Below are positions 52,944-62,467 of a stretch of 64,000 bases of DNA, piece by piece. Position 1 is the first letter of the stretch, and each line of letters begins with the position of its first letter. The translations under genes were made by a program, and so were the position numbers. Origin of the DNA: a bacterium (GTDB lineage Bacteria; RBG-13-61-14; DATKZS01); the NCBI GenBank assembly GCA_963674965.2, contig CAXXFL010000006.1:224001-288000 (forward strand). The letters are read 5' to 3'. The notes beneath the pieces were generated by a model. It saw only the letters and a list, made by a program, of their open reading frames with translations. It made no database searches and was not told where the DNA came from.

Positions 52944-53225
52944 TTACTTTCCTGTGGCTTGGGCGATGACGTGGTTCCAAAACGGGTTGGCGAAAATGAG
53001 AATCATCGAGACCACGAAACAGTAGATGGCCGTTGACTCGATCATCGCCAGGCCCACGAACAAGGTCCGAGTTATGGTAGCGGAGGCATCAGGCTGCTGG
53101 GCCAACGAACTCAGTGCCGTTGCGACCGCCTTCCCTTCCGCCAGCGCAGGCCCCATAGTGCCAAAACCGGTGGTGATGCCGGCGATGACAATCGATGCCA
53201 CCGCGATAATAGTCATGTTATCCAT
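52944..53225 (-). CDS. atpE: N-ATPase c subunit
   Basis: PALAEG, QQP loop, ESTAIY. Confidence 0.93.
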   Translation of the reverse strand: MDNMTIIAVASIVIAGITTGFGTMGPALAEGKAVATALSSLAQQPDASATITRTLFVGLAMIESTAIYCFVVSMILIFANPFWNHVIAQATGK

Positions 53226-53285
53226 AGTATCTCCTATGATGGTTGTCTACCCAACCTTTTAAATTAGCTGAATTATTTTACAAAC

Positions 53286-54302
53286 TCAGCCTTTCGCTAT
53301 TACTCCGTTCGGGAAGTCCTCCCAAATCAAGTTTTCCTGTAAAGTGATGTAAATGATCTTCAAAAATTTGCGAGCCAGTGCGATGATGGCCTTGCCCGCG
53401 CCGCGCCTGGCCTTGATACGCTCGTAGAAGCTCGACAAATAAGGGCTGTAACGCTTGGCGATGAGGGCGCATTGGACCAGGGTAGTGCGGCCGAGTTTGT
53501 TGCCCCGCTTCGTGATCCGGCCCGAGCGGCTGGTCTCGTTCGAGTTGCTAACCCGGGGGACGATGCCGAAGTAGGAGGCCAGCTTGCCCTCGTCGGGGAA
53601 GTCCTTGACGTCAACGATCACCGACAAAAGTATGGCCGAGCCAAGGTCCCCGATACCCTTTATGCTCTTCAAATTCTTGTGACCGGGAAGCTGATTGCCC
53701 GAGTCCTTGATGGCGGCCTCAAGCTCCTTGACCCCGGCGTTCAAGCCCCGAATCTGCTCCACCAGGACGCGGACCTCGGTCTTGACCATGGGGTCGAAAG
53801 GTATCTCCTGCACCGTCTCAAGGCCCTTCTCGCTGGAAAGATATTCCTTCTTCAGGTTGATGCCGTGGGCCGAGCAGATGTTGTTGATCTTGTTCTTCAA
53901 GGCCGTGCGAAGCTTCACCAGCTTGTCCCGGCTTTGAGTGAGGCTTTTAACCTGAGCGTGTTCCTTGTTCGGCATCCTCACCTCCGGCAAAAGGCCCTTG
54001 GACAAAAACAGGGCAAGGCGTCTGGCGTCGTTGCCGTCCGTTTTGTTGACCGACTCGCTGATGACCTTGAACTGGCGAGGGTTGACAACCACGACGCGGG
54101 AAACGAGGCCGCGAACGGCGTCGTAAAAAAGGCGGACGTTGCCCGTGACCTCAACCGCGATCTCGTCGGACTCGCGAAGCGTCGAGCAAAACTTCTCCAA
54201 ATCCTCGAGACGCCAGTCCTTGAGATAGTTCCGTCCGTTCTCGGCCAGGACGCAAGAGGTGAAACAATTCCTGTGCAGATCGATTCCAATGTACCTTCCC
54301 AT
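53286..54302 (-). CDS. IS110 DEDD recombinase/transposase
   Basis: GIDLH, AVEVTG, KTDGNDA, SIKGIG, YFGIVPRVSNS, ITKRGN, IALARK. Confidence 0.93.
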   Translation of the reverse strand: MGRYIGIDLHRNCFTSCVLAENGRNYLKDWRLEDLEKFCSTLRESDEIAVEVTGNVRLFYDAVRGLVSRVVVVNPRQFKVISESVNKTDGNDARRLALFLSKGLLPEVRMPNKEHAQVKSLTQSRDKLVKLRTALKNKINNICSAHGINLKKEYLSSEKGLETVQEIPFDPMVKTEVRVLVEQIRGLNAGVKELEAAIKDSGNQLPGHKNLKSIKGIGDLGSAILLSVIVDVKDFPDEGKLASYFGIVPRVSNSNETSRSGRITKRGNKLGRTTLVQCALIAKRYSPYLSSFYERIKARRGAGKAIIALARKFLKIIYITLQENLIWEDFPNGVIAKG

Positions 54303-54314
54303 TTCCTTACTCCT

Positions 54315-54535
54315 CCCTAGAAATAAATTTGATCTAAGGTCGGAGTAGACACGCTTTGAGGGGCCGCCAAACTCCTATACAAGGTCTAGCCTTACGGTGG
54401 CGCTCCAGTCGCGGGGCTGACTAATCTCCTTTACGAGGTCATAAGCCTCACGAAAACGATCCAGCCCACGACCCGCCTACTCCAATAGATCATTCCTAAC
54501 CTAGTTGAAGTATTTACCACCTCAAAACTCTTCAT
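54315..54535 (-). ncRNA. Predicted bridge RNA of IS110 copy 1
   Basis: Nested stems GGAGTAGGC/GTCTACTCC, GTCGTGGGCTG/CAGCCCCGCGAC, GAGG/CCTC, AAGG/CCTT; carries target match AAAGGAGAT (54424-54432) and donor match ATAGGAG (54372-54378). Ends approximate. Confidence 0.7.
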
Positions 54536-54563
54536 TCATACCATCTCCTTTTTATGTCTGGGT

Positions 54564-54873
54564 TCATGCCTCAATGTTTTCCTCGGGTTCAGGCTCGGGC
54601 TTACGGACTCGCGTGGCGGCCGCGATATAAACCGCTGTCAGAATACTGAAAATGTAGGCCTGAACCATGCCGGTGAGCAGACCGAGCGCGGTCATGATGA
54701 TCGGAAAAATATAGGGCACAATTGTGAGTAGAATACCGATAATCATGGCGCCGCTCATCATGTTTCCGAACAGACGGATGGCCAGGGCCAGCGTGCGCGA
54801 AAGTTCGCTGATGATGTTAAACGGCAGCATGATGAACGTCGGCTTCACATAGGACTGGAGGTAGTCGCCCAAA
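54564..54873 (-). pseudogene. atpB: N-ATPase a subunit, 5'-truncated
   Basis: Only about 100 C-terminal residues remain (LPFNIISELSRTLALAIRLFGN...VQAYIF), directly abutting the pgm stop. Confidence 0.85.
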
Positions 54874-54886
54874 CGCATGTTTGGGT

Positions 54887-56569
54887 TCAATCATGTTTCT
54901 TCCTCAAGCCATTTCCCGGCGGCGCATCCTGCGCAAGAGCGTCGTCGACAATCGTCTGGGCTTCCGAAAGGATGCGGCGCAGATGATCCGCTCCCCGGAA
55001 GCTCTCTCCGTAAATCTTGTAGATGTTCTCGGTCCCGGACGGACGCGCCGCGAACCAGCCGTTATCGGACACCACCTTCAACCCGCCAATCGCCGCTCCG
55101 TTGCCGGGCGCGTTGGTGAGGACCGCCAGGATTTTTTCGCCCGCCAGATCGCTCTGCTTAACCTGCTGTGGTGAGAGTTTCGCCAACGTTTTCTTTTGCT
55201 CCGGAGTGGCTGGCGCCTCAACGCGGTCATAGGCTGGCTCACCGAACTCGCACGTGAGTTCGTGGTAGATTTCGCCGGGATCGCGGCCCATCCGGGCGGT
55301 AATCTCCGCAGCCAGCAAAGCCGGGATAATCCCATCTTTGTCCGTCGTCCAGACTCCGCCATCCAACCGCAGGAAGGACGCGCCCGCGCTCTCTTCGCCT
55401 CCAAAACCGAGCGAGCCGTCCAGCAAGCCATCCACAAACCACTTGAATCCGACCGGCGTCTCGTGGAGCTTCCGGCCCAACTTCGCGGTGACCCGATCAA
55501 TCATCTGGCTGCTCACCACCGTCTTGCCGACCGCCGCTTTCTGGGACCACTTCGGTCGGTGCTGGAAGAGGTAGAAAATGGTGGCGGCCAGGTAATGATT
55601 GGGCGGCATCAATCCCGCGCTGCGGGTGACGATTCCGTGACGGTCGGCGTCCGTATCGCAGGCAAAGGCGATCTCGAACCGGTCCTTCAGGCCAATTAAC
55701 CTCTGCATCGCATAGGGGGATGAAGGGTCCATGCGGATCTGACCATCCCAATCCACCGTCATGAAACGAAAGGTCGGGTCAACGGCCTCGTTGACGACTG
55801 TGAGGTTCAAACCGTAGCGCTCGGCAATCTGCCCCCAGTAATGGACCCCGGCGCCGCCGAGCGGATCAACCCCCAGGCTGATCTTCGCGCCGCGAATGGC
55901 GTCCATGTCCAGCACGTTCTCGAGATCGGCCACGTAGGCATTGAGATAGTCGTGACGGTGCGTCGTGCCCGCGCGGAGCGCTTTTTCCAGAGCCATACGT
56001 TTTACGCCCGCAAGCCCCTGCTCGATAAACTCGTTGGCCTTGGCCTCGATCCAACCAGTGACGGAGGAATCCGCCGGCCCGCCATGGGGCGGATTGTATT
56101 TGAACCCGCCGTCGGGTGGCGGATTGTGCGACGGGGTGATAACGATGCCGTCGGAGAGGCCGGTCTTGCGTCCACGGTTGTATGTGAGAATTGCGTGGGA
56201 AACGGCAGGGGTTGGGGTATATTCATCCCCCTCTGAGATCATGACTTCGACCCCGTTTGCCGCCAGCACCTCAAGCGCGCTGGCAAAAGCCGGCACGGAA
56301 AGGGCATGAGTGTCCAGGCCAAGGAACAACGGGCCGTCGATCTTTTTCTGCTCCCGGTACAGACAAATGGCCTGACTGATGGCGAGAATATGCCATTTAT
56401 TGAAAGCCTTGTCGAAGGCGGAACCGCGATGTCCCGAGGTGCCGAAGGCAACCCGTTGCGCCGGCGCTGAAGGGTCAGGCTCCTCCGTGTAATAGGCCGT
56501 GACGAGTCTGGGCACATCCACCAGCATTGATACTTCGGCCGGCTTTCCGGCAAAAGGACTTACAGTCAT
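54887..56569 (-). CDS. pgm: Phosphoglucomutase (alpha-D-glucose-1,6-bisphosphate-dependent)
   Basis: [35 protein letters not shown]. Confidence 0.95.
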
Positions 56570-57702
56570 GACTCGTCCGCCAAATGTGGCGATGACCTTT
56601 GCGCCAAGGCTTCCATCAGCTTGTCGAACGGCTGGTTGAATTTCTTGACCCCTTCGTCCTCAAGCTGCTGCGTCACATGGTCGATATTGATGCCGAGTTC
56701 CGGCAGTCGTTCTAATATTCGGCGGGATTCCTCGACATCTTGCTCCAAGCGGGCCTTCGGGTCGCCGTGGTCGCGGTAAGCGTCGAGGGTTTTTACCGGG
56801 ACCGTGTTGACCGTGTCCGGTCCGATGAGGGCCTCGATGTATTTAACGTCGCTGTAGTCCGGATTTTTGGCGCCAGTGCTGGCCCAGAGAATCCGCTGTG
56901 TGCGAGCACCCTGGCCGGCAAGTTTTTTAAACCGGTCGCTCTCGAAGATTTCCTTGTAGATCTGATAGGCCATCTTCGCGCTGGCGATGGCAACCTGACC
57001 GCGCGCCTTCTTCGCTAGATCCGCCTCCTTGCCGCCTTGCGCGATAAGTTTGTCCAGCAGCGGATCCACCAGCACGTCAATGCGACTTACAAAGAAGCTG
57101 GCCACCGAGGCGACCTGCTTCACCAGCTTGCCTTGGACCACGCGCGCCTCGATGCCGGCGAGGAAAGCTTCCACCACTTGCAGATAACGTGGTAATCCAA
57201 AAAGCAACGTCACATTGACGTTGATACCTTCGCTGATAAGTTGCTGGATAACGGGCAGTCCATCGGCCGTCGCCGGGACTTTGATTAAGACATTGGGCCG
57301 GTTCAGCGCGGCCCACAACCGGCGGGCCTCCTTCATCGTACCTTCGGTGTCGTGCGCCAAGTGGGGATTGACCTCCAGGCTGACATATCCATCTTGGCCG
57401 TCAGTCCGGTCATAGAGAGGCTGAAACTCGTCGGCGGCGCTCTGCACGTCGCGCTGGCTGAGGGTTTCGTAGATTGCCTGAGCGCCTTTCCCCTTTGCCG
57501 CGATGGCCCGAATGTCCTCGTCGTATTCGTGGCTGTCCGCAATGGCCTTCTCGAAGATGGATGGATTCGAGGTCATCCCCCGCATTCCATCATCCTCGAT
57601 CAGACGCCTGAGCCCGCCGCCAGCGATCAAATCTCGTCGGATGTAGTCCAGCCAAATGGATTGGCCGAGCATTTCCACTTGTTTCAAAGGATTGCTCTTC
57701 AT
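56566..57702 (-). CDS. tal: Transaldolase
   Basis: [27 protein letters not shown] (Schiff-base Lys), [15 protein letters not shown]. Confidence 0.93.
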
Positions 57703-57743
57703 GCTCGTGCCTCCACGCTTTCTTTCAGATTGCGTTCCCGCGG

Positions 57744-58151
57744 TTAAGCGGGGTAACTGTGCTCTCTTTTCGTTTCCGGCGGGCCTGGCTCTCGGACCCA
57801 CTCCCAGGCTTCCTCTAGTTGCGGGGTGGAAAAGAACTTTACTTCTCCTTGAATGAAATGGGAGCTGAACCGGACCCCCCACTGAAACCACTCCGGCCCG
57901 CCCACCACCGCCATTTTTTCCAGGTGGAAGCCTCCCTCCACCAGGCCGAACTTGACGTCATCTATCATCGCCTTGACCTCAAAGCCCTCGAAGTCATCCT
58001 CCGCGACGAATATGACCCGGATCCGGCCGTGGCTATGGATCACCTCTTCCAGCCGGGGGGTCAGGACCTGCTCGTAATCCTTTCCGCTCAGTCGGCCGCT
58101 AGCTTTAATCCCTAGAATATTGCCTTTGCTTTCTTTTAGAATCTCAATCAT
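57744..58151 (-). CDS. STAS/SEC14 (SpoIIAA-like) domain protein
   Basis: IKASGRLSGKDY, EKMAVVG, EAWEWV. Confidence 0.8.
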   Translation of the reverse strand: MIEILKESKGNILGIKASGRLSGKDYEQVLTPRLEEVIHSHGRIRVIFVAEDDFEGFEVKAMIDDVKFGLVEGGFHLEKMAVVGGPEWFQWGVRFSSHFIQGEVKFFSTPQLEEAWEWVREPGPPETKREHSYPA

Positions 58152-58296
58152 TGGTTGCCTCCATCTCACCCGCGCGGGGCGATCAATTCTCGGCCGGGGC
58201 CAGATTCACTCCGGCAATGATTTTGCGCCAAAAACTCCCTCATGAGTCTCCTTTAGGGACCCGGTTGGGTTGGCGCGGTCGCGGCCGAAATGCACA

Positions 58297-59718
58297 TCAC
58301 ATCAGCGGCGACAACAGCCGGGCGAAGCTGTCTTTCAGTTTTGCCAGGTAACCCCTGCGATCAAGGTCCTCTTCGGTCACCTCCTTGCTTACCGCCTGGT
58401 CGCGGTGGAAGCGAGCTTCCAATTCGCCCGCGAACACCGGGTCCAGTACCAGGCCCCCTAGTTCGAAGTTGAGTCGGAAGCTGCGGATGTCGAGATTGGC
58501 GCTTCCAACGATGCTCCATCGGTTATCGACCATCAATGTCTTGGCATGGAGCATGGAAGGCAAATACTCGAACACGCGCACGCCCCCGCGCGTCAGCGAT
58601 GGGAAATACGATCGCGCCGCCGCGCCCACCAAACGAATGTCACCCTTGCCAGGCACTAGTACACGTACGTCCACCCCTCGCATGGCCGCGCTGATCAGGG
58701 CCTTTAAAATGGCGTCATCCGGGATGAAATAGGGGCTGGTCAGATAAATCTTGCTCCGGGCCGAGGCAATGCCGGCGAAGAAGACAAAAGAGTTGGCGTT
58801 ATGTTCCTGATCGGGCCCGCTCGGTATCACCGCCACGATGGAAGCGTCATCCGCTTCGGGCAGCGGGTGGGGCGGCGGCGACAACTGCTCATCGGCAGCG
58901 AAAAACCAGTCCTCCGCAAAGGTCTGCGCCAGTTCGCCCACCGCCGGGCCACGCATCATCAGGTGGGTGTCGAGAAAGACCATGTCCCCTTTCCGCCGTG
59001 ACGATCCAGAGTATTCGTCGCCGACGTTCATACTGCCGGTGAAACCGATTTTGCCGTCCACGATGATAATTTTACGGTGGTTGCGCAGGTGCACGGACCA
59101 GCGCCGACGCAGGGGGTTGATAGGCAGGAAGGCTTCCACCTTGCCGCCCGCGGACTTGAGGGCCTTAAGCCGCGCCGCGTCCAGGCCCATCGAGCCCAGG
59201 GCGTCATAAAGAAGTCTGACCTCCACCCCCGATCCGGCCCGCTCGGTCAGGGCATCAAGAAAGCGATGGCCGGTCTCGTCGTTATTAATGATGTAATATT
59301 CCGCCCAGATGCTGTGTCGGGCGGACGAAACCGCGGCCATCATCTTTGCAACCGCATCCTTGTTGTCGGCCATCAGTTCGACCCGATTGCCGGCCGTTGG
59401 AGCCAGTCCGGTCAGACGGACCGCGAGTTGCAGCAGCGAGCCTTCCAGCGCATCCACGGAGAGCCCCGGCGCGGCATGCCCCTGCCGGCTAAGGGTCCTC
59501 CGCAATGTCATGGCCGAGATGCGCTTGCGTCGAGTGACGCGCCTGACCCCGGCCCTGGTGAGCAACAGGTAAGAAACGGCGCCCACCACCGGCAGGGCCA
59601 CGATGGCGAACATCCAGGCCAGGGTCGCCTCCACCCCGTGCCGCCGCGATACCGCGCGGAACAGGGCGTAGGCGGAGAGCGTGTAAACGCACACCCAGAA
59701 CAAAGTCATCTTGCTCAT
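58297..59718 (-). CDS. cls: Cardiolipin synthase
   Basis: PLDc_N TM hairpin and two HKD motifs (HRKIIIVD, HAKTLMVD), GSANLDIRS. Confidence 0.92.
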   Translation of the reverse strand: MSKMTLFWVCVYTLSAYALFRAVSRRHGVEATLAWMFAIVALPVVGAVSYLLLTRAGVRRVTRRKRISAMTLRRTLSRQGHAAPGLSVDALEGSLLQLAVRLTGLAPTAGNRVELMADNKDAVAKMMAAVSSARHSIWAEYYIINNDETGHRFLDALTERAGSGVEVRLLYDALGSMGLDAARLKALKSAGGKVEAFLPINPLRRRWSVHLRNHRKIIIVDGKIGFTGSMNVGDEYSGSSRRKGDMVFLDTHLMMRGPAVGELAQTFAEDWFFAADEQLSPPPHPLPEADDASIVAVIPSGPDQEHNANSFVFFAGIASARSKIYLTSPYFIPDDAILKALISAAMRGVDVRVLVPGKGDIRLVGAAARSYFPSLTRGGVRVFEYLPSMLHAKTLMVDNRWSIVGSANLDIRSFRLNFELGGLVLDPVFAGELEARFHRDQAVSKEVTEEDLDRRGYLAKLKDSFARLLSPLM

Positions 59719-59739
59719 TGGCGGCCGAACGACCAAGGC

Positions 59740-60228
59740 TTACCCGATGTTTGAGTCATGCGATCTCCTGCGCCGGGTCAAAGGTTGGGAGCCTGATTTC
59801 TGTCTTGGTTTTGCCTTCGGGGAATTATCTTTAAACCACTTTCGAACCTTCGCCGTGATCTGACGGTCCGTCATCTTGTCAACGGTTTCAACGCCCACGA
59901 TGCGGTCGTCAAGATTGTTAGTTTCGAGACGTTTGCGCAGTTCGTCTTTTGCCTCGCCAGGACCGAATATCAGGATTGCCTCCGAATTGCTAATACTCGC
60001 GATTACGGCATCGTAGAAAATGTTGAGCTCTCCCTCAAATTTTCTCTGGCGGCTATCGTCCTCCGGCACTAGCTGTGATTCATAGGGACCCTCTAGAGGC
60101 GAATCACCGGAACGACGGAGTTGTTTTTCAACCTTCGAGAGGATCAGCCTCACCTCTTCCCCTTGATCCGTAAGCGCCACTATTCTGGCCTTCTTGTGGT
60201 CAATCCATAGACCCACTTTGGTTCTCAT
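59740..60228 (-). CDS. Host-attachment/baeRF (eRF1 domain 2-like) protein
   Basis: GLWIDHKKA, ILIFGPGEAK, DKMTDRQ; ATG 60228 lies 5 nt after AGGAGA. Confidence 0.7.
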   Translation of the reverse strand: MRTKVGLWIDHKKARIVALTDQGEEVRLILSKVEKQLRRSGDSPLEGPYESQLVPEDDSRQRKFEGELNIFYDAVIASISNSEAILIFGPGEAKDELRKRLETNNLDDRIVGVETVDKMTDRQITAKVRKWFKDNSPKAKPRQKSGSQPLTRRRRSHDSNIG

Positions 60229-60289
60229 CAATCTCTCCTATGATGGTTGTCTACCCAACCTTTTAAATTAGCTGAATTATTTTACAAAC

Positions 60290-61306
60290 TCAGCCTTTCG
60301 CTATTACTCCGTTCGGGAAGTCCTCCCAAATCAAGTTTTCCTGTAAAGTGATGTAAATGATCTTCAAAAATTTGCGAGCCAGCGCGATGATGGCCTTGCC
60401 CGCGCCGCGCCTGGCCTTGATACGCTCGTAGAAGCTCGACAAATAAGGGCTGTAACGCTTGGCGATGAGGGCGCATTGGACCAGGGTAGTGCGGCCGAGT
60501 TTGTTGCCCCGCTTCGTGATCCGGCCCGAGCGGCTGGTCTCGTTCGAGTTGCTAACCCGGGGGACGATGCCGAAGTAGGAGGCCAGCTTGCCCTCGTCGG
60601 GGAAGTCCTTGACGTCAACGATCACCGACAAAAGTATGGCCGAGCCAAGGTCCCCGATACCCTTTATGCTCTTCAAATTCTTGTGACCGGGAAGCTGATT
60701 GCCCGAGTCCTTGATGGCGGCCTCAAGCTCCTTGACCCCGGCGTTCAAGCCCCGAATCTGCTCCACCAGGACGCGGACCTCGGTCTTGACCATGGGGTCG
60801 AAAGGTATCTCCTGCACCGTCTCAAGGCCCTTCTCGCTGGAAAGATATTCCTTCTTCAGGTTGATGCCGTGGGCCGAGCAGATGTTGTTGATCTTGTTCT
60901 TCAAGGCCGTGCGAAGCTTCACCAGCTTGTCCCGGCTTTGAGTGAGGCTTTTAACCTGAGCGTGTTCCTTGTTCGGCATCCTCACCTCCGGCAAAAGGCC
61001 CTTGGACAAAAACAGGGCAAGGCGTCTGGCGTCGTTGCCGTCCGTTTTGTTGACCGACTCGCTGATGACCTTGAACTGGCGAGGGTTGACAACCACGACG
61101 CGGGAAACGAGGCCGCGAACGGCGTCGTAAAAAAGGCGGACGTTGCCCGTGACCTCAACCGCGATCTCGTCGGACTCGCGAAGCGTCGAGCAAAACTTCT
61201 CCAAATCCTCGAGACGCCAGTCCTTGAGATAGTTCCGTCCGTTCTCGGCCAGGACGCAAGAGGTGAAACAATTCCTGTGCAGATCGATTCCAATGTACCT
61301 TCCCAT
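60290..61306 (-). CDS. IS110 DEDD recombinase/transposase
   Basis: Protein identical to 53286-54302. Confidence 0.93.
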   Translation of the reverse strand: MGRYIGIDLHRNCFTSCVLAENGRNYLKDWRLEDLEKFCSTLRESDEIAVEVTGNVRLFYDAVRGLVSRVVVVNPRQFKVISESVNKTDGNDARRLALFLSKGLLPEVRMPNKEHAQVKSLTQSRDKLVKLRTALKNKINNICSAHGINLKKEYLSSEKGLETVQEIPFDPMVKTEVRVLVEQIRGLNAGVKELEAAIKDSGNQLPGHKNLKSIKGIGDLGSAILLSVIVDVKDFPDEGKLASYFGIVPRVSNSNETSRSGRITKRGNKLGRTTLVQCALIAKRYSPYLSSFYERIKARRGAGKAIIALARKFLKIIYITLQENLIWEDFPNGVIAKG

Positions 61307-61318
61307 TTCCTTACTCCT

Positions 61319-61539
61319 CCCTAGAAATAAATTTGATCTAAGGTCGGAGTAGACACGCTTTGAGGGGCCGCCAAACTCCTATACAAGGTCTAGCCTTACG
61401 GTGGCGCTCCAGTCGCGGGGCTGACTAATCTCCTTTACGAGGTCATAAGCCTCACGAAAACGATCCAGCCCACGACCCGCCTACTCCAATAGATCATTCC
61501 TAACCTAGTTGAAGTATTTACCACCTCAAAACTCTTCAT
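61319..61539 (-). ncRNA. Predicted bridge RNA of IS110 copy 2
   Basis: Same sequence as copy 1; target guide 61428-61436, donor guide 61376-61382. Confidence 0.7.
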
Positions 61540-61642
61540 TCATACCATCTCCTTTGTCTATTTGCTTATCCTCTGGCAGCGCCAACATTTCGCGTCGCGC
61601 CGGCCGCCAACGAACCGGCGTCATAAGTTCTGAAACTCAGGC

Positions 61643-62467
61643 TTACTCGATGGTCATCAGGTTTTTTACCGCCAGCACGCCGTTAATGTCGTTAGCGAGC
61701 AAGGTGGCCAGGGTCTTTTCGGCCTCGTTCTTGGCCGTGCCGGACAAGGTGACCACGCCCTTGAACGTTTTCACCTTGGTCTTGAGGGCGCTGGTGGAGC
61801 GATGGGACAGCAAGGCGTACTTGACCTGGGCGGTGATGGACGAGTCGTCAACGGTATACGCCGCGTAATTGATTGCGTTTTTGGCGGTTCTGGACGTGTC
61901 ATCAACGGCGTCCCCCACGTAATCTTTCGCGTCAATGTAGGTCGCTTTCCAGGAACCGTTCACGACCATCTCGTTCTTGACGCTTTTTACGCCATCGACG
62001 TCTTCGGCGTATGCAGTCGCCAATTCCTTTTTGGCCTGGTTGGAGGTGACGCCCTTCAGGGTAATGACGCCGTCTTTGGCGGAAACGTCGATTTTACTGT
62101 CGTTCACGCTTCTATGAACGGCGAGCGTAATTTCCACCTTCTCTTGGATCCACGCATCCGAGTTGGCGGTCGGGTCCTCATCCTTGATGGTCAGCCGGTT
62201 GTCCACTTTTTTGACCCCGGGCATGGCCGCTACGGTCGTTTCGGCCAATAGTTTGCGGGAGGATCCGGCGACGACCCCGGTCAAGGTGACCACCCCGTCC
62301 TTGCACACGATTTTAATGTCGTCGCCCCTGAGAAAGGTCTTGAAGATATACGAATCCTTGACGGACGACATGATTTGAGCATCCGTCACGGACGCGCGCA
62401 CCGGCGTGACCATCGTCATCAGAACGGCAATGGCCGCCATCAGAAACACGTTATGTTTTGCTTTCAT
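61643..62467 (-). CDS. Triple BON-domain protein (paralogue)
   Basis: Same length (274 aa) and collinear with 41794-42618. Confidence 0.9.
   Translation of the reverse strand: MKAKHNVFLMAAIAVLMTMVTPVRASVTDAQIMSSVKDSYIFKTFLRGDDIKIVCKDGVVTLTGVVAGSSRKLLAETTVAAMPGVKKVDNRLTIKDEDPTANSDAWIQEKVEITLAVHRSVNDSKIDVSAKDGVITLKGVTSNQAKKELATAYAEDVDGVKSVKNEMVVNGSWKATYIDAKDYVGDAVDDTSRTAKNAINYAAYTVDDSSITAQVKYALLSHRSTSALKTKVKTFKGVVTLSGTAKNEAEKTLATLLANDINGVLAVKNLMTIE

Follow-up and report, generated by a model that had tools for sequence, protein, structure and literature searches.

Two Copies of an IS110-Type Element in the Window

The window studied here, a stretch of 64,000 nt from a bacterial genome (assembly GCA_963674965.2, contig CAXXFL010000006.1, positions 224,001 to 288,000), carries two copies of an insertion sequence (IS) of the IS110 family, each of which sits in the Shine-Dalgarno (SD) sequence ahead of a gene. 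Both copies lie on the minus strand, and the segment from 53231 to 54551 recurs at an offset of 7004 with one base different. Copy 1 (53231..54544) and copy 2 (60235..61548; one difference from copy 1) are net inserts of 1314 bp, the element size given in an earlier reading of this DNA (hereafter the original prediction), and the empty sites that we reconstructed for them match those proposed there. The element extends from the left end ATGGTATGAATG to the right end CCATCATAGGAG; these ends are not inverted copies of one another, and no inverted repeats were reported within the element at a minimum length of 30. Its transposase (recombinase) gene, at 53286..54302 in copy 1 and 60290..61306 in copy 2, encodes a protein of 338 aa with a DEDD RuvC-like domain and a Tnp domain, and its stop codon is separated by 55 nt from the right end. 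The gene is preceded by a structured 5' non-coding region of 242 nt (54303..54544, minus strand, in copy 1), a candidate bridge RNA.

The recombinase matches the Pfam families DEDD_Tnp_IS110 (PF01548, E 2.5e-15) and Transposase_20 (PF02371, E 1.6e-21) and reaches 221.5 bits against the NCBIfam model NF033542 (IS110 family RNA-guided transposase), for which the cut-off is 140; the family named in the original prediction was therefore the right one. Its nearest solved relatives in the PDB are IS621 (8wt6, E 6.6e-13) and ISCro4. Residues D8, E51, D89, D92 and S254 are invariant in 21 relatives and align with the IGID, xExTG and NKTDxxDA motifs and the serine region of IS621, positions that we take to be the catalytic D-E-D-D and serine residues of that enzyme. 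Judged by its sequence, the element is a member of the IS110 family and of its IS110 type. In elements of the IS1111 type, as described, the non-coding region follows the gene and the inverted repeats are subterminal, whereas the non-coding region lies upstream here; on this arrangement, assignment to the IS1111 type would not be appropriate.

Read along the minus strand, the left junctions are cataaAAAGGAG|ATGGTATG and tagacAAAGGAG|ATGGTATG, so written that the host half of the target, AAAGGAG (54545..54551 for copy 1 and 61549..61555 for copy 2), faces the left end of the IS after insertion. The right junction of copy 1 reads CATCATAGGAG|AtactATG, the ATG being the atpE start at 53225, and that of copy 2 reads CATCATAGGAG|AgattgATG, the ATG being the start at 60228. 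The AGGAG at the right end of copy 1 (53231..53235, minus strand) acts as the SD sequence of atpE, with the ATG 5 nt past GGAG. AGGAGA is present at both junctions of the two window copies and no open reading frame (ORF) is cut. The regenerated site is ATAGGAG(N) in place of AAAGGAG(N), and its distance to the ATG is unchanged; the downstream gene thus retains its SD core and spacing. The original prediction was correct as to the AGGAGA at both junctions, the uncut ORFs and the retained SD sequence and spacing.

Nine Independent Insertion Sites in the Genome

A blastn search of the whole genome recovered ten full copies of the element and one left-end remnant of 48 nt. Since the ten copies depart from window copy 1 at no more than one of the 1314 positions, the expansion of the element is recent. 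Two copies form a head-to-tail dimer on contig C7 (C7:6724-9359) with the junction CATCATAGGAG|ATGGTATG, which leaves nine independent sites. The per-contig depth of the IS (159-178) is about 10x that of the flank (16.7), and a contig with a joined right end-left end (RE-LE) junction, for which circle and dimer are indistinguishable, was found in a second sample of the same study. In our preferred reading, this IS110-type element is active or was so recently.

The host left flank ends in AAAGGAG at 9/9 sites, all right ends are CATCATAGGAG, and AGGAG is present at both junctions throughout; the shared target, originally proposed from the two window copies, thus holds beyond them. These junctions allow the crossover to be placed. 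The first host base past the right-end GGAG (+1) varies (A 6, G 2, T 1), while the left junction always proceeds with the element's own A, which argues for a crossover 5' of +1. The two bases preceding AGGAG are host AA at the left junction and element AT at the right junction at all nine sites, and the crossover should therefore lie inside AGGAG. Relatives of the element that end in TTCATGGGAG narrow it to GGAG, since at their position -5 the right junction has the donor base and the left junction the target base.

At seven of the nine sites, an ATG located 5-8 nt past GGAG opens an ORF (of 93, 162, 354, 278, 131, 211 or 272 aa). The remaining two do not lie at convincing gene starts: no start codon is present near the copy at C2:65269, and the copy at C3:21908 lies in an IS-rich stretch that includes an IS630-like gene, with an ORF of 9 aa ahead of it. 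After masking of the IS copies, 2030 AAAGGAG sites were counted in the genome, 416 of which (20.5%) are followed at 3-10 nt by the start codon of an ORF of 80 aa or more; control words gave 7-18%. Insertion at gene starts in seven of nine cases is far above this background (binomial P = 3.7e-4), and the comparison of flanks and start distances suggested in the original prediction hence came out in its favor. That prediction had also stated that the element always resides inside a transcribed unit and is co-oriented with it. The co-orientation is found at every site, but "always" is too strong, given the two sites just named and a subgroup of relatives with the guide ACACGGAG (see below) that is not positioned at starts.

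Several minor features accompany these sites. As regards the dimer on contig C7, the left junction of every insertion is again a perfect target (AAAGGAG+A), and re-insertion there would yield head-to-tail dimers. The solo 48-nt left-end remnant (C6:1074153-1074200) follows an AAAGGAG about 170 nt downstream of an apparent tRNA 3' end, and its left flank is 76-81% like that of the C7 dimer; this likeness suggests a paralogous site that was once occupied and in which the element was later truncated. Directly past the right junction of the C3:21908 copy (C3:20530-20585), there are two copies of a 16-nt direct repeat, 32 nt apart, with an IS630-like transposase ORF about 600 nt beyond them, and this region looks as if it had been reworked by other mobile elements. 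"Skips" of 1341-1345 bases that we came across in public sequencing runs were rejected as empty sites; they contain 28-32 other letters, and since the contigs from which they stem are only 90-95% alike, they represent spacers of other organisms.

A Large Clade of Relatives Inserts at the Same Motif

Among 8000 candidates scored, at least 4,456 homologues were found at E <1e-30; the contigs that carry most of them are 1.3-2 kb long, in keeping with a collapsed repeat. For the analysis of junctions we scanned one genome per species and used the best 80 of 383 stretches (62-71% protein identity, about 57 assemblies). Most of these 80 relatives come from Bryobacterales, Terriglobia and other Acidobacteriota, and a few are labelled Hydrogenedentota, Scalindua, Sumerlaeota, Udaeobacter, Tepidisphaeraceae and Deferrimicrobiaceae. 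Two are labelled Bathyarchaeota and Clostridia; they are found on contigs of 2810 and 1192 bases, and we suspect mis-binning in both cases. A DNA search of 40 related genomes detected no copy of the element, with just two weak matches in one of them (G003).

The left junction NAAGGAG|ATG(G/A)NATGAAT is present in 76/80 relatives, and the right junction, ..TAGACA..CATCATAGGAG| or TTCATGGGAG|, in 74/80. Pooled with the sites in the genome under study, 81 left and 79 right flanks yielded a target logo with A at -7 (61/81), A at -6 (71/81) and AGGAG at -5 to -1 (80-81/81). Position +1 is A in 46/79 and G in 20/79 flanks, and no base is fixed past it. When the right flanks of the 80 relatives were followed into the host DNA, 44 showed a start codon at 3-10 nt that opens an ORF of 80 aa or more, 14 had a start with a closed ORF of fewer than 80 aa, and nine lacked a start at 3-10 nt. 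The others were set aside: in three the ORF runs off the locus, in six the right junction was not found, and in four the flank is shorter than 20 nt. Hence, the first group accounts for 44 of 67 evaluable flanks. In the 47 flanks with an ORF that reaches 80 aa or is cut off by the end of the locus, GGAG and start are 4-9 nt apart, most often 6; in at least three of the nine start-less flanks, a start preceded by a second SD-like run is present at 11-15 nt. At every site, both in the genome under study and in the relatives, the transposase is in the sense of the downstream gene.

Two structural variations were noted among the relatives. In L070, L105 and L161, the last approximately 16 bases of the right end (ACAAACATCATAGGAG) stand twice in tandem ahead of the start of the host gene, which could be the scar of an excision and re-insertion or of a lost dimer. 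Longer relatives of 1.5-1.6 kb (L016, L022, L027, L030, L047 and others) contain 200-300 extra bases between the transposase stop codon and the right end; these bases are rich in G+C palindromes, e.g., GGGGCGCTGCCCC, and are missing from the element in the window.

A Loop of the Non-Coding Region Covaries with the Flanking Host DNA

The 242-nt non-coding region folds with a minimum free energy of -92.9 kcal/mol (z = -4.38 vs. shuffled sequences), and an RNAalifold consensus of 56 distinct sequences comprises 42 pairs, 17 of them with compensatory changes. The consensus fold consists of a closing stem followed by two internal loops, each with an apical hairpin. On the 3' side of the first internal loop lies the segment AAAGGAGAU (54424..54432 in copy 1 and 61428..61436 in copy 2, minus strand), which has the sense of the target top strand and which we refer to as the target guide. 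On the 3' side of the second internal loop lies AUAGGAG (54372..54378 in copy 1 and 61376..61382 in copy 2, minus strand), the donor guide, which matches the right end CATCATAGGAG.

We compared the target guide with the host flank in 75 genome loci for which both were available and in 61 metagenome loci, 136 in total; the metagenome loci were picked by a pattern that leaves four positions free. Among the genome loci alone, 16 of the 21 guides with bases other than AA at -7/-6 share both of these bases with the host flank. In the full set, 37 of the 47 guides that deviate from AAA at -7 to -5 match the host flank exactly, a number that was reached in 0 of 20,000 shuffles, and 75 of the 89 AAA guides likewise match exactly. 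Broken down by position, non-majority guide bases match the flank in 34/40 cases at -7, 9/11 at -6 and 5/5 at -5, with no signal at -8. Since a segment located about 115 nt inside the element covaries with sequence outside of it, these data argue for an RNA-guided choice of the target, as the original prediction had presumed from knowledge of the family. The donor guide agrees with the right end in 104/107 loci (ATAGGAG 91, ATGGGAG 13).

Natural variants of the target guide comprise GAAGGAG, GTAGGAG, AGAGGAG and CACGGAG. The guide ACACGGAG occurs in five loci (L118, L130, L139, L159 and L167), four of which are inserted at CCACGGAG. L159, the sole member on a long contig, is inserted behind a convergent gene rather than at a start. 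This subgroup, inserted away from starts, indicates that SD targeting is a property of the guide and can be lost. The loci with this guide sit at (C)CACGGAG and have similar left flanks (CCTACC.., TCCACC..), possibly representing a repeated host sequence. As a further observation on the RNA, the right end of the relatives holds GGAGTAGACA, which equals ten bases of the 5' strand of the closing stem (alignment columns 84-93) and is the complement of its 3' strand GTCTACTCC (alignment columns 263-270). It may be a further donor contact or just a -35-like TAGACA/TTGACA.

Probable RNA-Guided Insertion into the Shine-Dalgarno Sequence

We consider it very likely that the element is inserted into AAAGGAG(A) in an RNA-guided fashion, with the crossover inside GGAG. 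According to this model, the recombinase would be guided by an RNA (a bridge RNA or seekRNA) derived from the 5' non-coding region of the element. The segment AAAGGAGAU in its first loop, having the sense of the target top strand, would pair with the bottom strand, and AUAGGAG in the second loop would correspond to the right end of the element. The joined ends (..CATCATAGGAG|ATGGTATG..) would then recombine with host AAAGGAG(A), and a crossover within GGAG would leave the motif at both junctions. In this way, the host gene would retain AGGAG at the original distance from its start codon, and the original SD sequence would face the left end of the element, which is itself start-like (GGAG-N5-ATG). 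Since the guide would read one strand of a polar motif, the element would always be co-oriented with the gene behind the SD sequence, and it could be transcribed by read-through. The simplest reason for the excess at true gene starts would be that the SD consensus coincides with the 7-8-nt target and that insertions at the numerous intragenic copies of the motif are lost.

The recombinase of IS621 from Escherichia coli (Durrant 2024; structures 8wt6-8wt9) belongs to the same family but is similar to the one studied here only at about E 1e-13. As far as IS621 is described there, the gene of both elements is preceded by a non-coding region whose two internal loops correspond to target and donor, and in both a short sequence at the crossover is common to donor and target. 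The wild-type genomic target given for IS621 is ATCAGGCCTAC with a CT core, and this core is common to all four pairings (Durrant 2024). The target of the present element, in contrast, is AAAGGAG(A), about 7-8 nt in length, with GGAG as the shared part. Natural IS621 sites are REP elements.

A number of observations weigh against our model. The guides identified here depart from the published arrangement of IS621, in which left guides on the 5' side of the loops pair with the bottom strand and right guides on the 3' side pair with the top strand (Durrant 2024). We identified one guide per loop, both in sense and both on the 3' side, whereas the sense guides of IS621 occupy the 5' side; right guides for the top strand, which IS621 as described possesses, were found neither by inspection nor by a search for antisense matches. 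Mutual information between RNA columns and right-end positions did not reveal them either; it is dominated by shared ancestry and provided nothing usable. Ten of the 47 variant target guides lack an exact match in the flank, and the covariation of the donor guide, with just two states, may reflect a single evolutionary event. An Rfam scan of positions 53000-55000 at E values up to 1 gave no match. The empty-site allele of this strain was not found in public runs, and the empty sites are reconstructions. As regards expression, a promoter scan of the RE-LE junction in the tandem dimer called no sigma-70-like site, and read-through, which we infer, is not mirrored in one RNA run that covered the flanks and not the IS; since the contigs of this run are 90-95% alike, they derive from other organisms.

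A different arrangement of the guides would have precedents. The DEDD transposases of IS1111-type elements are described as RNA-guided (through a seekRNA) and as inserting site-specifically (Siddiquee 2024, PMC11187229), and the same source reports that the order of the strand matches in the RNA is reversed between the IS1111 and the IS110 types (PMC11187229). Many bridge RNA models are stated to deviate from the IS621 structure in a 2026 preprint. Together, these reports make an arrangement other than that of IS621 not unprecedented.

Comparison with IS900 and IS901

The novelty suggested in the original prediction, which was aware of no earlier description of such insertion, did not hold in full. 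IS900 and IS901 of Mycobacterium avium, both members of the IS110 family, are reported to insert between the SD sequence and the start codon (PMC2942039), and an IS110-family element that aims at the SD sequence is, according to these descriptions, already in print. The target motif given for IS900, CATGNNNNNNTCTCCTT (PMC8141618), is the reverse complement of AAGGAGA-N6-CATG. IS900 is also described as lacking inverted repeats, as producing no flanking direct repeats of the target upon insertion and as rarely disrupting genes (PMC8141618). On the strand opposite to its transposase lies the ORF hed, which has neither a ribosome-binding site nor a start of its own (PMC8141618).

Judged by these published descriptions, the elements are alike in the enzyme family, in the SD word that serves as target, in the lack of inverted repeats and in their rarity within genes; they differ in several other respects. 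The transposase of IS900 would be antisense to the target gene, as is implied by the account of hed, whereas it is in sense at every site studied here. For IS900, insertion between the SD sequence and the ATG is described, whereas we place the crossover inside the SD sequence, which is therefore found on both junctions. The hosts of IS900 are mycobacterial, and those of the present clade are mostly Acidobacteriota. A full-text literature search retrieved no description of this clade, of a sense-oriented IS110 element that targets SD sequences, or of a bridge RNA guide that equals the SD sequence. A Geobacillus paper was discarded; it concerns IS701 elements in a selection assay. Apparently new, therefore, are the sense orientation, the crossover within the SD sequence, the arrangement of the guides and the large, mostly acidobacterial clade.

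A more comprehensive reading of these data is one that we put forward only tentatively. It views the element as a representative of a large, mostly acidobacterial clade of bridge RNA elements whose target guide is fixed on the SD consensus. With the crossover inside the SD sequence, one SD sequence would be left to the host gene and the other to the start-like left end, making the element a polarity-neutral "operon passenger" that relies on host transcription and perhaps on host translation. About 7-8 nt would be read by a single sense guide per loop, in an architecture that is simpler than that of IS621 or permuted relative to it, and the natural changes in the guide would represent target reprogramming in the wild.

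The findings connect the landing of IS900-type elements on translation-initiation signals, known since the 1990s, with the bridge RNA mechanism reported in 2024, in that the guide spells the SD sequence, and they provide a natural case of base-by-base reprogramming of a target across more than 130 loci. For genome annotation, they account for the presence of such elements within operons without broken genes; the element is common in soil bacteria, and the genome studied here harbors ten copies. For engineering, the clade provides recombinases whose target seems to be very short and whose guide RNA seems to be arranged differently. With respect to evolution, they pose the testable question whether intragenic copies are lacking through selection or through mechanism.

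Alternative Explanations

An association with SD sequences could also arise if true translation-start regions were mechanistically preferred, beyond the 7-8-nt motif (AAAGGAGA) alone. Possible causes of such a preference are easier melting of the AT-rich spacer between SD sequence and ATG, the state of transcription or translation, or an unrecognised right-half guide. From crude gene calls (4738 ORFs, 89% coding), the 2030 AAAGGAG sites of the genome divide into 236 SD-like, 1561 intragenic and 233 other intergenic sites. None of the nine insertions is intragenic, compared with 77% of the motif sites, and since the copies differ by at most one base, there has been little time for selection to remove intragenic ones. 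The nine sites also have flanks with a higher AT content than AAAGGAG sites as a whole (Mann-Whitney P = 0.002), which is compatible with selection or with mechanism, and the proportion of strict gene starts among the relatives (44/67) is above the approximately 50% of SD-like sites among the non-intragenic motif sites of this genome. Against this background of about one half, however, seven of nine is not a significant excess, so that a 7-8-nt target and the lack of intragenic copies suffice to explain the association, and SD regions have AT-rich flanks anyway. Moreover, the right flanks of one and the same element show no fixed base past +1, and the C2 copy and the ACACGGAG subgroup were inserted away from starts. 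A reading of the ATG at a fixed distance was rejected, since the spacing spreads over 4-9 nt. Overall, we regard a mechanistic preference for start regions as rather doubtful.

The SD position might, alternatively, be adaptive in that the host SD sequence and host transcription drive expression of a leader ORF, the bridge RNA and the transposase, as has been proposed for hed of IS900. The displaced host SD sequence in copy 1 faces GGAG-ATGGT followed by a mini-ORF (ATG AAT GAA GAG TTT TGA; 54522..54539, minus strand) that begins 5 nt past the host GGAG and might be translated. The left end GGAG-N5-ATGAAT is kept in nearly all relatives, the orientation is always sense, and a promoter scan of the integrated copy called no site on the sense strand and one on the opposite strand. 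Furthermore, Doran 1997, by its title as cited, argues that IS900 targets initiation signals in order to express hed. The conserved left end is, however, also the donor half-site, and its conservation hence requires no translation; past ATGAAT the mini-ORFs differ in length and sequence; and a strand-specific guide makes the sense orientation automatic. The mini-ORF may thus be translated or may be conserved merely as a donor half-site, and SD targeting may be an adaptive "safe harbour" or the mere outcome of a 7-8-nt guide combined with the loss of intragenic insertions. We consider it unlikely that expression explains the SD position.

Two further explanations fare much worse. That AGGAG at both ends is a target-site duplication from a staggered cut, with the specificity set by the protein and not by RNA, is very improbable: a direct repeat of 5-6 nt does flank each copy, but its sequence is identical at every site, the two bases before it are consistently those of the host (AA) at the left junction and those of the element (AT) at the right junction, the recombinase is of the DEDD IS110 kind and not a DDE transposase, and the internal segment covaries with the flank. 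It is hardly credible that the copies arose through duplication of segments comprising the IS and a gene, or that they reflect an error of assembly, as the one tandem dimer and the likeness between the flanks of the remnant and the dimer might suggest: the nine sites differ in both flanks and are followed by unrelated genes, the flanks of other copies appear at loose ends in independent contig sets, and the depth of the IS is approximately tenfold that of the flank.

Host Genes and Expression at the Two Window Sites

Downstream of copy 1 lies an atpE-like gene for ATP synthase subunit c (52944..53225, minus strand, 93 aa). The ORF upstream of this copy (54564..54890, minus strand, 108 aa) covers only positions 114-216 of the 217-position profile of ATP synthase subunit a, its C-terminal half, and directly follows a phosphoglucomutase gene (54887-56569). 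A full atpB (266 aa) and a second atpE are present on contig C1 (C1:535894-536945), and the atp cluster in the window may therefore be a partial second set. The atpE start named in the original prediction is correct, but as an example of insertion into an atp operon the site is weaker than thought, given that the copy lies beside a truncated atpB and that a complete atpB-atpE pair exists elsewhere. Copy 2 is situated between a BON-domain gene (61643..62467, minus strand), which has the same orientation and ends 87 nt before the target, and a gene of 162 aa counted from the ATG (59740..60228, minus strand) that belongs to no Pfam family and whose ATG is found 6 nt past the regenerated GGAG.

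With this arrangement, we infer that the downstream gene must be transcribed through 1.3 kb of IS DNA. Terminator-like sites in the element number four, compared with 1.7 +/- 1.5 expected, and none on the sense strand is convincing. Abutted ends of IS1111 and IS110 elements are reported to form a junction promoter (PMC11187229). At the RE-LE junction of the present element, inspection reveals TAGACA-17 nt-TATGAA with a TG before it, a sequence that does not satisfy the rule of the promoter scan.

Two features of the opposite strand were noted in addition. An ORF of 282 aa runs antisense through the transposase gene (53472-54320 and 60476-61324, both on the plus strand); unlike hed of IS900, it is not faced by the host SD sequence, and it is probably a by-product of the G+C-rich coding sequence. 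A terminator-like hairpin with a weak 5-bp stem and a T-run lies in the right end at 53241-53256, on the strand opposite to the element, and would be expected to halt antisense transcription arriving from the side of the downstream gene.

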